The notes under the pieces were generated by a model that had not been told where the DNA came from, did not search any database, and was given only the letters and a program-made list of their open reading frames with translations. From a virus, in UHGV virus genome UHGV-0301809: a stretch of DNA of 25,521 bases. One strand, 5' to 3'. Both the position numbers and the translations under genes were made by a program. Shown piece by piece: positions 3,598-17,066 of the stretch. The stretch's first letter is position 1; every line of letters starts with the position of its first letter.

Positions 3598-3620
3598 AAG
3601 GAGCTTCGGCTCCTTTTTTG
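3598..3620 (+). terminator. rho-independent terminator (UUCG tetraloop hairpin + U-run)
   Basis: AAGGAGC-TTCG-GCTCCTT followed by TTTTTT at 3614-3619, directly after the antirepressor stop. Confidence 0.7.
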
Positions 3621-3676
3621 TTGGAGAAAAATCAACCACTACTCGTTCCCTTGCGAGTAATTGCGGAGACTTTGCG

Positions 3677-3892
3677 ATGTACTTGACACTTCAGGAGTGG
3701 AACGCTCGCCAGCGACGCCCAAGAAGCCTTGAAACAGTTCGTCGATGGGTGCGCGAATGCAGGATATTCCCTCCTCCGGTTAAGGATGGAAGAGAGTATC
3801 TGTTCCACGAATCAGCGGTAAAGGTTGACTTAAATCGACCAGTAACAGGTAGCCTTTTGAAGAGGATCAGAAATGGGAAGAAGGCGAAGTAA
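3677..3892 (+). CDS. xis: excisionase, lambda Xis type
   Basis: Translation MYLTLQEWNARQRRPRSLETVRRWVRECRIFPPPVKDGREYLFHESAVKVDLNRPVTG... is near-identical to my recollection of phage lambda Xis; overlaps int by 20 nt as in lambda. Confidence 0.9.
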   Translation: MYLTLQEWNARQRRPRSLETVRRWVRECRIFPPPVKDGREYLFHESAVKVDLNRPVTGSLLKRIRNGKKAK

Positions 3893-4751
3893 TGAGCGCC
3901 GGGATTTACCCCCTAACCTTTATATAAGAAACAATGGATATTACTGCTACAGGGACCCAAGGACGGGTAAAGAGTTTGGATTAGGCCGAGACAGGCGAAT
4001 CGCAATCACTGAAGCTATACAGGCCAACATTGAGTTGCTATCAGACAACGGGCGCGAATCACTGATAGACAGAATCAAAGGCGCTGACGTAATCACTCTT
4101 CATACGTGGCTTGACCGATATGAAACAATCCTCAGCGAGAGGGGTATCAGACCGAAAACTCTACTCGACTACGCCAGCAAAATCAGGGCAATCCGAAGAA
4201 AATTGCCGGACAAACCGCTCGCTGACATATCAACGAAAGAGGTGGCAGCAATGCTAAACACCTACGTAGCAGAAGGTAAAGCGGCTTCCGCAAAATTAAT
4301 CAGGTCAACCCTTGTTGACGTTTTTCGTGAGGCAATAGCCGAGGGGCATGTGGCAACGAATCCGGTAACAGCAACCCGTACAGCAAAGTCAGAAGTAAGG
4401 CGCTCAAGGCTGACAGCTAATGAGTATGTCGAGATTTACCATGCAGCCGAACCTCTCCCTATCTGGCTAAGGCTGGCGATGGATTTGGCCGTCGTTACAG
4501 GGCAGAGAGTCGGCGATTTGTGCAGAATGAAATGGTCAGACATAAACGACAACCATCTTCACATTGAACAGAGTAAAACAGGGGCTAAACTCGCCATTCC
4601 GCTAACGCTAACGATTGACGCGCTCAATATCTCATTGGCTGATACACTACAGAAATGCAGGGAGGCCAGCAGCAGTGAAACTATATGTCAACGGACTGGG
4701 TTAGTTGAATTTACAACCATGCTCAGTATCTCGATAAGCGCAGAGAAATGA
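3873..4751 (+). pseudogene. int: lambda-type tyrosine integrase, C-terminally truncated (292 aa versus about 356 aa)
   Basis: N-terminal 270 residues align with lambda Int (MGRRRS.ERRDLPPNLYIRNNGYYCYRDPRTGKEFGLGRDRRIAITEAIQAN..., TGQRVGDLC, EQSKTG); homology ends near nt 4690 and the ORF stops at 4751, so the catalytic His/Arg/His/Tyr block is missing; no plus-strand ORF continues it. Confidence 0.7.
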
Positions 4752-4981
4752 TGCAGTGGTGGGCGGACTGGCTTGATGAAAAGGTGGAGTGATCCACCTT
4801 AACTATCGAATGACACAAATCCTTGCAATCCAGTGCAAAGCTTTGTGTACCTTAGTTTTGTCTCATAGGTAATTCTGCTTTAACTGCGATGCAGGAATCT
4901 GTCACCAGACGCACGTCTCGTTGTTTTATGGTTTTCCGTTCATGATTAATATGTTAGCTTGTCAAAGTTTGTGTTTAAGAT

Positions 4982-5653
4982 ATGGTGATTGATGCAATGT
5001 TAAGCGTTCAGATGACTCCACAAGCAAAAGTTAGCTTCGAGGAGCAATGTTTTTTTCATGCTTCAGGTCTTGTTGTTGCCCCAATAAATGTTGGAGCATT
5101 CTCCTACTTTGGCGCTAATTGTATGCTCGGCGGCTTTACGATGGGTAGATTTTGTTCAGTTGCTCCAGGAGTAAAAATTGGCCTTGGCGAGCATGAAACT
5201 GGGTATTTTTCTACGCATCCTTTTTTCTTTGGCTCAAAAAATGGTTTTAAAATCCCTGATGGTATAGGAATGCAACGCGACCTCTCTCAACAGAAGCATG
5301 GTATACCAAGAATTGGTCATGACGTATGGATAGGTGCAAATGCGGTTATCAGGCGAGGTATAACTATTGGTACTGGCGCTGTTATTGCTGCTGGCGCTAT
5401 TGTCACCAAAAATGTCGAGCCATATTCAATCGTAGGTGGCGTTTCTGCAAAACACCTAGGGTACAGATTTGAGGAATCAATCATCAAAGAGTTACTGGAT
5501 AGCCAATGGTGGGAATATGATTTAAGCTCATTTATTGGGATTGATACAAGGACACCGACTACTTTTTTAGAGCAGTTTAATGCTATAAAAGATAAAAAGA
5601 AGGCATCTTATAAGAGATTTACAATTCTTCCATCCGGTGAAATTGTTGAATAG
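4982..5653 (+). CDS. hexapeptide-repeat acetyltransferase (XAT / CatB / Vat-like left-handed beta-helix)
   Basis: Motifs [52 protein letters not shown] and a C-terminal [10 protein letters not shown] resembling the WW motif of xenobiotic acetyltransferases; AT-rich by eye; start codon uncertain (ATG 4982, 4997 or 5009). Confidence 0.8.
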
Positions 5654-14542: not shown

Positions 14543-15960
14543 TACTCGATCCTTATCTGGCAGCCTGACAGAGTGACAGGTGACTTAGTGATAACACGCA
14601 ATTTGAAGCCGACATTTTTCCTGATGCGCCCAACTCGCTTCCACAAAACGCGTTTGTCGTAAACGAACGGTTCATTCTGCTCAATCATCTGCTCACGCCC
14701 GTAATTGATGCCGTCAGTGGTTGCAGAGAGAAAAAGGCGGTCAGCATACTGCGCAACTCCAGTTGACGATTCAACTTCAAGGTCGAAAACTCTGGCGTTA
14801 TCCGCTTTGAACAACGGAGTAAACAGCAGGTGTTCCTGCTGCTTGTCGTACTGGCTGCTGATATCGAACTGCAGTTTCCCGGTAACAGATTCCAGCTTAT
14901 CGCCGCACGTTATCTGATTGCCTTCGTAAATGAAGTCGATAGCGCGATACACATCGTCATACAGGCCTGTTTTCAGCACACACCATTGCGGACCATTGGC
15001 GCTTGAAGATGCGTCGTACACAAGGACGTGACGCGAAAGATGGATAATCAGCAACTCATGAGCATCAAACCGCAACGATTCCATCACACCATCAGCCAGT
15101 TCATCAGCAGTGTAGGAGCGGAGGATTTTCTCAATGCTCGCGCTGGCGATTGGTGATACCTGACCGGAGCCGATGATGTATACAGACGGAGCACCTGTTG
15201 CCGGATTGCTGATAAACGCATAGGAATCAGCAAACGGCGTTTTGCAGTAAGTTCCGGCAATGCCTTTCTGCACCATCAGTGATGGCTGTGCGACATACAA
15301 AGCGGCACCAACGGTGGTTGCCCCAGTCAGGGAAAAATATTCAATCGTCGATGAACCAAAGCAGACGATGAAGTCTCGCCATGTTCCGATGCCGAGGATA
15401 CCGTCCGGCTGCGATTCTGCGCGATATTGTGCGCTGTAACGGTCAGGATGCGATTCGTCTTCAAGGTCAGTGATAAACCATGAATCCGTGCCGTCTTTTG
15501 ACCACGCATAACGCCCACGTAAGCGTGTAATGTCACGAACCGAACCTAACTCATACTGCGTGAATCCGCTGTCTGTAGGCCAGTTTGAGACGGTTTTAAC
15601 CGTGCCGTCATAGCGATACTCGACCAGTTGACCATTAACGCCTACAGCCTGAGATGTCCGACCATGCGCCATTGATACGCGACCACTTCCGGCAACATCA
15701 CCGACTGCATTTTCGCCTTTGTACAGCTTGCCACCACACACGCGATAAACAGCATTTTGTGCCATGTTGTACTCGGCGCCGCGAGATACACCGTTCACAT
15801 CAGAGCGTTTGGCAATGCCAGGGAATGAGCGAAGATATCCGCTGCTGTTCAGGATTTCTTTGGGTGTATCCAGCATATTCACTGGCAGATAGTCGATATA
15901 GTCAGCGTTTCGGAAGTCTTTGCCGACACCTTTCATAAGCGGAAGTTGCTGAATAGGCAT
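14542..15960 (-). CDS. tail hub protein, P22 gp10-like
   Basis: 472 aa starting [49 protein letters not shown], matching the P22 gp10 N-terminus as I recall it; synteny. Confidence 0.8.
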
Positions 15961-16461
15961 TTATTCGCTCCCGTTATCGCAAGATTCCTTCCGGTGGAAG
16001 TAATTCCAACCGTTCCACTTCGCCAACTGGTTACCGCTACCAACAGGCATACGGTTTGGATAACCGGACTTACATTTAGCGGCTTTTGCTCTGTCCATTG
16101 CAGACAGTTTGACGAGTCGCTCTTTCCCGTATCTGGCAGTGGTTATAAGTTTTGCAGACGCTTCCAGCGCATAATCTGGAGCAATGCGGCAGGCAAGGTT
16201 GAAAATGACGGCATTGATAGCGTTATTTGATAAACCGTGCTCATCGCCCGGATCCGGAGCAACATCTGCATCAGCAAAAATGTAGCCAACGTTGATACCA
16301 GGTGACGCATCACCGCCAAGCCATTCAGCCATCATCATTTCAAGGTCGTTGACGCCGTCTTCCATAGACTGCGGTTCGACATCTGTTAACGTGGCATTTG
16401 ATGCCACACCGAGCTTACGTAATGCCGCAAGGACTAAATCACCCTTCGTTGTCAGGTTCAT
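15961..16461 (-). CDS. tail accessory protein, P22 gp4-like
   Basis: Internal start [33 protein letters not shown]... fits the gp4 family; track N-terminal extension to 16527 rejected. Confidence 0.7.
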
Positions 16462-17032
16462 CTGCTGCCGCCTTAGGTTTTCGACCAGGCTTTTTACGCT
16501 GTTTTTCTTCTGGCTCTGGCTCTGCAATAGCCGGACGCAAACTCAGGAGTCGTCCAAGAACATCATTTGCTTCATGACCATCCCACTCTTTCCCGAACTC
16601 AAGCTCAGTACCTTCAGGAAGGAACTCGATTTCTTCAACAGGTAGGTGATAAGTGATTTCGCCTTCTGGAGTGGTGATACCAGCAATGATCCAGCCATCC
16701 CACTCTTCACCGTCACTGTGTTTGCGAGACCACCACGAAAGCTCAGCGTAAGCATGCATCAGCGATGAGAAGAGGCGCACTCGGTGAGCGTAAAGCTCGT
16801 TAAAAGTGTGATAACCGTCGGACACTTCGCCCATATCAACTGGGGAAGTTTCACCTCCGCCAACACTCCCAATTTGATCACCAACAAGAGGATCATCAGG
16901 AACATCGTCAGGGTGCTTATACCAGCCATTTGCTAAGTGCACAGCTACATCATCAGGATCAACGGTTTTCGTTTTCAGCTTGCGTCCCCAGATTTTGGTA
17001 TCTCCGCCAGCCTGAAAAATCATTACGCTCAT
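16439..17032 (-). CDS. hypothetical acidic protein (about 197 aa) with basic C-terminal tail, between coat and gp4
   Basis: Internal start [10 protein letters not shown]... chosen because the track ORF's upstream part overlaps the coat gene and terminator; C-terminus [11 protein letters not shown] is AT-hook-like; no family recognised. Confidence 0.5.
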
Positions 17033-17042
17033 TGGTATCTCC

Positions 17043-17066
17043 AATAGAAAAGGGAGCCGAAGCTCC
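17043..17066 (-). terminator. rho-independent terminator-like hairpin downstream of coat (UUCG tetraloop)
   Basis: On the minus strand GGGAGC-TTCG-GCTCCC followed by TTTTCTATT; nearly identical stem-loop to the terminator at 3598-3620. Confidence 0.55.

Follow-up and report, generated by a model that had tools for sequence, protein, structure and literature searches.

Two near-identical hairpins, each with a UUCG loop and followed by a run of T, are found in UHGV-0301809, a virus genome of which we analyse one stretch of 25,521 nucleotides (nt), here called the window. Hairpin A follows an antirepressor-family gene (ant) on the plus strand, and hairpin B follows the coat gene on the minus strand. 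We consider it quite probable that both are ordinary hairpins of the Rho-independent terminator type that have become alike by convergence, and that they act conditionally, being passed by antiterminated polymerase. The evidence consists of their structure, position and conservation, the covariation among relatives of B, the separate lineages of the two and the ubiquity of the motif. The pair had been pointed out in an initial annotation of the sequence, with coordinates that are right within 1-2 nt. As a kind of element, and in their positions, the two are already known. The features at the two sites are the following.

2730..2759, plus strand: promoter-like site, TTGACA-18-CATACT, on the left boundary of the ant cassette (consensus match only, 10/12)
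2962..3591, plus strand: AntA/P22_AR_C antirepressor-family gene, ant (Pfam AntA 2.7e-28, P22_AR_C 2.2e-9)
3597..3619, plus strand: hairpin A, AAA-GGAGC-TTCG-GCTCC-TTTTTT, of the intrinsic-terminator type, which closes the ant cassette on its 3' side
3651-3664, plus strand: lambda-type cII site/PI region, with TTGC-N6-TTGC, immediately 3' of hairpin A
18371-17076, minus strand: coat (major capsid) gene, P22 gp5 homologue, 72% amino acid (aa) identity to the coat proteins of P22 and L, annotated as coat in relatives
17043..17070, minus strand: hairpin B, (AGA)GGGAGC-TTCG-GCTCCC-TTTTCTATT, the coat-distal stem-loop of P22-like phages
17032-16439, minus strand: WDGH-domain open reading frame (ORF) at the position of P22-group orf186 (Pfam WDGH 1.3e-39), with the Shine-Dalgarno sequence (SD) GGAG at 17041-17038

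The stem of hairpin A (3600-3604 paired with 3609-3613) encloses the loop TTCG at 3605-3608 and is followed by T6 at 3614-3619; the AAA at 3597-3599 is able to lengthen it. On the minus strand, hairpin B runs through GGGAGC (17067-17062), TTCG (17061-17058) and GCTCCC (17057-17052) into TTTTCTATT (17051-17043). It is one base pair longer than A, and 14 bases are common to both. The stems have 5 base pairs (bp) in A, or 8 with A-U pairs, and 6 in B, or 8-9 with A-U and G-U pairs. The U-tract is U6 in A and UUUUCUAUU in the B of the window, with U6-U7 in most close relatives of B. Both hairpins are intergenic and in sense orientation on the coding strand of their own operon, and each begins 9 nt past a stop codon, after a spacer of 8 nt (TAA of ant at 3589-3591, TGA of coat at 17078-17076). 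The well-formed cUUCGg tetraloop, the U-tract, the orientation and the position just past the stops all agree with the terminator type that had been assigned to them.

With two mismatches allowed, the 14-mer is found exactly twice in the window, once per local operon and in sense. Shuffled windows contain on average 0.14 matches, and 1 in 100 shuffles reaches two. Further copies, which the initial annotation had proposed to look for, are absent from the 25.5-kb window, and the complete genome of the relative IME10 has the coat-distal copy only. Segments of 46 nt fold at -14.4 (A) and -15.3 (B) kcal/mol, with z of -3.1 and -2.5 against shuffles; the hairpins alone fold at -7.5 and -10.8 kcal/mol, and at -10.9 and -14.4 with the A-U extension. 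A standard terminator scan lists A and omits B because it ran the stem of B into the T-run; the omission is therefore an artefact and not counter-evidence to B, and a second scan that trims A-U pairs detects both. In total about four convincing intergenic terminator candidates in sense orientation exist in the window, two of which are A and B. In Rfam, searched over the whole window at gathering thresholds, neither hairpin has a match.

Two other functions were considered and rejected. RNase III sites need longer stems than the 6-9 bp found here, and a bidirectional terminator does not agree with the reverse strands, which carry TTTG and TCTGG tails only. Elsewhere in the window there are terminator-like hairpins on the minus strand at 3638-3661, just upstream of the cII site and xis, and in the 4798 region between int and the acetyltransferase gene (IME10 has a similarly placed one next to int), and on the plus strand at 5650-5669, between the convergent acetyltransferase and tailspike genes.

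The gene lineages of hairpins A and B

The ant ORF opens at GTG 2932, and its likely start is ATG 2962, with the SD AGGAG at 2955-2959. The gene that had been named ant encodes a protein of the AntA/P22_AR_C family; it is not the immI ant of P22 and belongs to a cassette of its own, located upstream of xis in the early-left operon. By BLAST, 3450-3619 is homologous (80-98% identity) to antirepressor genes found in many Stx and lambdoid phages, and the alignments to ant cassettes of Stx phages end exactly at the last T of the run, 3619. With a longer query 280 records match, and many of them have in common a unit that runs from about 2618/2726 to 3619; many Stx phages show the start of homology at about 2726, near the promoter-like site. 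Among 69 ant homologues from IMG/VR (64-99% protein identity) the 23-mer AAAGGAGCTTCGGCTCCTTTTTT is present in 68, the last ant codons and the 8-nt spacer vary, and at least four unrelated sequences begin right after the T-run. The relative Louie is without the cassette. On the other side of the junction, lambda-type xis/PI homology begins at 3650: the segment 3650-3720 matches the xis start with its cII site and PI promoter, the xis start is 95-99% identical to those of lambda, HK022 and 434, and the record of phage 434 annotates both a promoter and a CII site. By these alignments, hairpin A is the invariant 3' end of a mobile ant cassette common to Stx and lambdoid phages.

The leader of about 200 nt between the promoter-like site and ATG 2962 has structure of its own and folds as a whole with z = -2.2. 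At 2844-2928 (plus strand) it contains a full-length match to the Rfam family RF02221 (sRNA-Xcc1), which at 49.6 bits (E = 4e-8) is below the gathering score of 53, and the same segment gives a weak match of 15.5 bits to the C4 antisense RNA (RF01695). An antirepressor gene preceded by a C4-like RNA brings to mind the c4-icd-ant immunity circuit of P1 and P7. At the ribosome-binding site of ant (ACGUCAGGAG) there is a complement of 6-7 nt to the second loop (CUGACG) of the C4-like RNA. A terminator-like hairpin, CCGCA-11 nt-TGCGG followed by C and T6, precedes the sRNA-like element at 2786-2813 (plus strand) and could be an attenuator.

Hairpin B is equally fixed after its own gene. In close coat relatives (98-99% identity) the stem is intact in all 79 that are readable, loop variants (TTCT, TTTG) occur in 3 of them, most have T6-T7, and divergence from the window starts immediately 3' of the T-run. 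The WDGH ORF (16439-17032, minus strand) exists in two strongly divergent alleles among phages with 98-99% identical coat, and the switch between them falls right after the T-run of B. Phage L has orf186 at the same position, and P22 a different small ORF, orf69. More distant P22-like relatives, down to about 25% coat identity, have a hairpin and U-tract at the same place with different stems.

P22: GGGGC-UGCG-GCCCC
Phage L: GGGGC-UUCG-GCCCC
Sf101 / CUS-3: UGGGGC-UUCG-GCCCCA
Brookers: GGGAGC-UUCG-GCUCCC
Kc237: GGGGAGC-UUUG-GCUCCUC
IME_EC2 / Lumpael: GGGGAGCC-AUU-GGCUCCUC
Vibrio PVA1: GGGCGGC-UUAU-GUCGCCC

Ralstonia phage RSK1 has no hairpin at the coat-distal position. In an alignment of eight lineages, whose segments were picked by hand and by eye, 91% of the cells are paired, both sides change in 4 of 7 pairs, and the covariation score is 0.485 compared with 0.223 in shuffles, none of 500 shuffles reaching the observed value.

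By its position and build, hairpin B is the stem-loop that follows the coat gene in most of the P22-like phages examined, and as such it is already in the public record. The RefSeq entry of P22 (NC_002371.2) has a stem_loop at 6102-6119 with the note 'similar in location to stem-loops in phage HK97 and phage lambda', and the record of phage L (MW013502.1) has a terminator at 6366-6390, at the same coat-distal position. The genome paper of phage L discusses two roles for it, partial termination or the stopping of transcription that began without antitermination by gp23/gp24 (PMC8022706). Our literature search found no 3'-end mapping or termination assay for the coat-distal hairpin in the P22 group.

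Origin of the shared 14 bases

The initial annotation took the reuse of the sequence as a sign of a portable terminator module. Such a module would mean common descent: either one terminator unit was copied, or moved, between the two sites, or a single mobile element gave rise to both hairpins. All 14 bases are identical, TTGGAGA follows and an 8-nt spacer precedes both hairpins, and mosaic breakpoints coincide with the end of both T-runs. However, beyond these bases the flanks are unrelated. TTGGAGA is part of the variable downstream modules, lies outside either conserved hairpin unit and is missing from most relatives in each lineage (after A it belongs to the xis-adjacent context and has no start codon after it). 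Further, each hairpin is fixed after its own gene, and this holds for relatives without the other gene too; the homologues of B in P22 and L have a different stem, GGGGC. We therefore regard such a shared descent as very improbable. Hairpin A does travel, with the ant cassette, but copying between the two sites is not supported.

The hairpin is also ubiquitous in unrelated phages. The 19-mer GGAGCTTCGGCTCCYTTTT is found in at least 120 IMG/VR stretches, mostly unrelated; about 110 of the 122 matches listed have unrelated flanks and about 12 are P22-like coat or ant contexts. A control of the same composition with a broken hairpin, unable to fold, gives 1 match. A permuted stem (GGGAC/GTCCC) and a version with a GAAA loop also have at least 120 matches each, so any small G+C tetraloop hairpin with a T-run is massively recurrent, as the hairpin of the window is. 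Among 50,697 cultured-phage records, a 35-nt query around hairpin B matches 1,415 (including, by host, Vibrio 444, Escherichia 228, Pseudomonas 142, Klebsiella 139, Acinetobacter 58), the T4-like phages SSE1, F2 and JM17 among them. Several of these records annotate the matched site as a terminator, in silico.

Of the 122 IMG/VR matches listed for the 19-mer, 107 lie 0-46 nt (median 18) past the stop of a same-strand ORF of at least 60 aa. Upstream of the matches listed there are 86 distinct ORFs, of which 41 encode major head proteins that form six clusters unconnected by BLAST (21, 7, 6, 4, 2 and 1 members); among the others are 9 SSB proteins and proteins of the tail tube, sheath or fibre. 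Phages thus use this hairpin repeatedly after highly expressed genes, consistent with what is seen in T7-like phages (PMC10134795). Its occurrence in environmental phages after SSB genes and after major capsid genes from six or more families unrelated in sequence is, together with the location of both hairpins of the window on mosaic breakpoints, a by-product of the analysis. Two environmental contigs (L087 and L121, among the IMG/VR loci L085-L204) have two copies of the 19-mer each within a few kb.

How surprising the identity of A and B is depends on the null. For 178 sampled non-trigger tetraloop hairpins with T-runs, the probability that any two drawn at random share their 14-mer is 0.004, or 0.02 when only UNCG/GNRA loops are counted. 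The expected number of identical pairs is 0.02-0.12 among four terminators and, at the lower rate, about 0.1-0.3 among 8-12. The pair is non-random when compared with nucleotide shuffles and unremarkable when compared with small tetraloop terminators; it is mildly improbable for one window and routine at the scale of genome scans. The shared 14 bases are best explained by convergence on a common terminator design, with separate histories of A and B.

Hairpin B with its T-run and SD (AGGGAGCTTCGGCTCCCTTTTCTATTGGAGA) has a single exact match of 31 nt in Acinetobacter phage vB_AbaM_3098 (PV081573.1, 39330-39360), between two hypothetical genes; a PHROGs scan of these flanking genes matched no family. 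The match counts in favour of a portable module, and horizontal transfer of so short a unit may conceivably have taken place. It is probably the extreme of a very common motif, because the 1,415 matching cultured-phage records make it the tail of a broad distribution.

The breakpoints lend themselves to another explanation, in which the hairpins are mainly linkers at the DNA level that provide microhomology for module exchange, with termination being secondary. At both sites homology breaks within a few bases 3' of the T-run in many independent relatives, the same 20-30 nt are common to many unrelated phages, and in the T4-type phages RB49 and phi1 stem-loops of the PeSL type mediate such exchange (PMC2839356). 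However, selection acting on random recombinants also yields breakpoints at gene boundaries, the window has only two copies, inverted and without a repeated promoter partner, and there is no evidence of recombinant joints inside the hairpins. We find this explanation unlikely. The same low probability applies to its general form, in which ubiquitous terminator hairpins of 20-30 nt would be universal microhomology linkers that channel recombination to gene boundaries and so aid mosaicism. If it were true, the breakpoints at the T-run ends of both sites and the 31-nt identity with the Acinetobacter phage would be traces of recombination and not of selection alone.

Proposed read-through and expression of the distal genes

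The window belongs to a P22-like (Lederbergvirus-type) phage of E. coli, whose nearest records (IME10, Louie, CurroJimenez and APC_JM3.2) are about 95% identical across the late region. The late genes form one operon on the minus strand, and a lambdoid early-left operon has its distal part on the plus strand, from 538 to 5653.

24589-24095, minus strand: small terminase
24117-22615, minus strand: large terminase
22054-19886, minus strand: portal
19872-18961, minus strand: scaffold, followed by coat and the WDGH ORF
Minus strand, after the WDGH ORF: gp4, gp10, then a 317-aa ORF at the position of the Louie tail needle knob gene
Minus strand, next ORFs, at Louie positions: head morphogenesis, DNA ejection, injected protein, DNA transfer protein (P22 gp14, gp7, gp20, gp16)
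8048-5673, minus strand: tailspike
Plus strand, early-left operon in order: erf, abc2, Ead/DUF551 gene, AntA/P22_AR_C gene, xis, int, hexapeptide acetyltransferase
3677-3892, plus strand: xis (Pfam Exc 1.1e-40)
3873-4751, plus strand: int, short

A few of the neighbouring genes are unusual. The integrase ORF (3873-4751, plus strand) has 292 aa, and its catalytic domain matches positions 2-96 only of the 172 in Pfam Phage_integrase, so that it looks truncated. The acetyltransferase gene 3' of int (4982-5653, plus strand) is of the hexapeptide, CatB-like type. Between gp16 and the tailspike, the position of immI in P22, there are only a Mnt homologue (8661-8954, plus strand, with Arc and Repressor_Mnt domains) and an ORF of homing-endonuclease type with HNH_3 and AP2 domains (8020-8562, plus strand). 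As the latter occupies the place of arc-ant, the Mnt homologue looks orphaned. Another HNH_3 endonuclease ORF (18439-18960, plus strand) is inserted on the opposite strand between scaffold and coat, where Louie has one annotated as well.

Both hairpins lie inside operons whose distal genes need expression, and because of this they are most likely conditional, leaky terminators and 3' stabilisers. In lambdoid phages such operons are transcribed by polymerase modified by N/gp24 or Q/gp23, which is resistant to intrinsic terminators. The genes beyond B (gp4, gp10, needle, ejection proteins and tailspike) are essential, the WDGH ORF being the first that depends on read-through. In a consensus scan no promoter-like site was found between B and gp4/gp10, the nearest one downstream on the minus strand being at 11834-11807, inside the gp20 ORF. 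Further, IME10, the closest sequenced relative, encodes a lambda-Q-like antiterminator, and Louie has the usual genes of the PL operon. Given these essential genes, the lack of a promoter-like site and the Q-type gene of IME10, hairpin B should be largely read through late in infection. At the other site, homology with lambda and 434 places PI across the start of xis; PI would serve int only and leave xis without a promoter of its own.

The two hairpins may then work as follows. The ant cassette, consisting of the promoter-like site, the structured leader, ant and the terminator, is inserted in the early-left operon. Hairpin A would halt unmodified polymerase, that is, transcripts from the ant promoter, before the cII-dependent PI region and xis-int and thereby insulate them, and PL transcription antiterminated by N/gp24 would pass it and yield Xis and Int. 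Hairpin B closes the procapsid module (terminase, portal, scaffold and coat) inside the late operon. Here too unmodified polymerase would be halted, on spurious transcripts or those from internal promoters; in phage BTP1 there are four transcription start sites in the capsid cluster (PMC7067206). Polymerase modified by Q/gp23 would largely pass B and express the essential distal genes. Residual termination, and protection of the upstream RNA 3' end from exonucleases, could give a step down in mRNA after coat.

That step had been proposed to be the function of B, as a partial terminator that keeps coat mRNA in excess over the downstream tail genes. In its strong form, B would terminate much of late transcription even by antiterminated polymerase and would alone keep coat mRNA above that of the head-completion, injection and tail genes. 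The position of B at the end of the high-copy procapsid module is kept across P22-like phages, the paper on phage L names partial termination as one option (PMC8022706), T7-like phages have terminators directly after their major capsid genes (PMC10134795), and the identical hairpin stands 3' of major capsid genes in six unrelated families among the IMG/VR matches listed. However, polymerase modified by a Q-type protein (Q in lambda, gp23 in P22) resists intrinsic terminators, and a Q gene is present in IME10; the genes beyond B are essential, with no promoter-like site ahead of the first one. Further, the low-copy terminase and portal lie upstream of coat on the same transcript, so the transcript level alone cannot set the stoichiometry. 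Partial termination, which the paper on phage L and the stem_loop note of the P22 RefSeq entry both address, is thus a plausible and standard hypothesis for this site as long as antitermination is allowed for and B is largely read through, and the strong form is possible but doubtful.

Alternatively, the hairpins could be pure RNA-stability elements that terminate nothing and only block 3'-5' exonucleases after endonucleolytic processing of the polycistronic RNAs. The stems are short, the U-tract of B is interrupted, and antitermination serves both operons; further, terminator-type hairpins stabilise upstream mRNA, as the pid terminator of P22, which acts in both termination and mRNA stability, illustrates (PMC8835761). 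However, A combines the geometry of a canonical intrinsic terminator with a perfect U6, U6-U7 is found in most relatives of B, and several phage records annotate identical sequences as terminators, if in silico. A function in stability alone seems rather unlikely to us.

Some points weigh against the view of convergent, conditional terminators that we prefer. Termination, read-through by antiterminated polymerase, stabilisation and effects on mRNA ratios are what we infer from the sequence. With its interrupted U-tract B, and with their short G+C-rich stems of 5-6 pairs both hairpins, could be of low intrinsic efficiency even for unmodified polymerase. The ant promoter is putative, and the antiterminator genes lie outside the window, the Q-type gene being known from IME10. 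The choice of segments for the covariation test is a biased ascertainment. Finally, the argument from convergence makes the identity of A and B unsurprising, which leaves some room for an ancient shared origin.

For phage biology little changes, as these are two more instances where such elements are already annotated. The site of B is of use for the question raised by the phage L paper on the role of intra-operon terminators in antiterminated operons, which is directly addressable at this conserved site (PMC8022706). More generally, finding the same short hairpin more than once in a genome does not show that a mobile module is shared, because the sequence space of small tetraloop terminators is small and heavily reused.

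Comparison with known systems

Hairpins with C(UUCG)G are said to have been described by Tuerk et al. (1988, PNAS) in the intercistronic regions of T4 and in terminators of E. coli. They have the same exceptionally stable tetraloop and C-G closing pair in intergenic positions, and A and B are further instances with no essential difference.

In T7, the terminator T-phi is located directly downstream of the major capsid gene. T7-like phages such as LUZ100 have, as at B, a strong hairpin just past the structural gene that is expressed most highly, and later structural genes are reached by partial read-through (PMC10134795). The T7-like terminators, however, act on a single-subunit RNA polymerase of the phage and are paired with a local phage promoter, whereas B is expected to act on the host polymerase under Q-type antitermination, and a local promoter was not found.

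The concept of the moron, a cassette of promoter, gene and terminator in lambdoid phages, reportedly goes back to Hendrix, Juhala and colleagues. The ant unit resembles such cassettes in having its own terminator, hairpin A, on the right, in being present or absent among related genomes and in occurring in several contexts; on the left, at the homology boundary, it has TTGACA-18-CATACT, which as a consensus match only would be its promoter. In contrast to a typical moron, it is co-oriented with the surrounding operon and has a long structured leader. The concept is used in PMC3573128 and PMC7067206.

The PeSL cassettes of T4-type phages also place a terminator stem-loop at mosaic junctions between exchangeable genes, as is seen here (PMC2839356). 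PeSLs are, however, composites in which an early promoter is joined to a stem-loop, are found in many copies per genome and have demonstrated recombination between the copies, whereas A and B are two inverted copies with no repeated promoter and no evidence of recombination.

The closest system is the stem-loop after gene 5 in P22 and L. It occupies the same site as B, between the coat stop and the next small ORF inside a single late operon, and is built in the same way, from a short G+C stem, a tetraloop (UUCG in L, UGCG in P22) and a U-tract before the next SD. The stem is GGGGC/GCCCC compared with GGGAGC/GCUCCC in B, which has an extra A-U pair, and the downstream ORF is orf69 in P22 but of the WDGH/orf186 type both here and in L. 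The question of its role (PMC8022706) applies equally to B.

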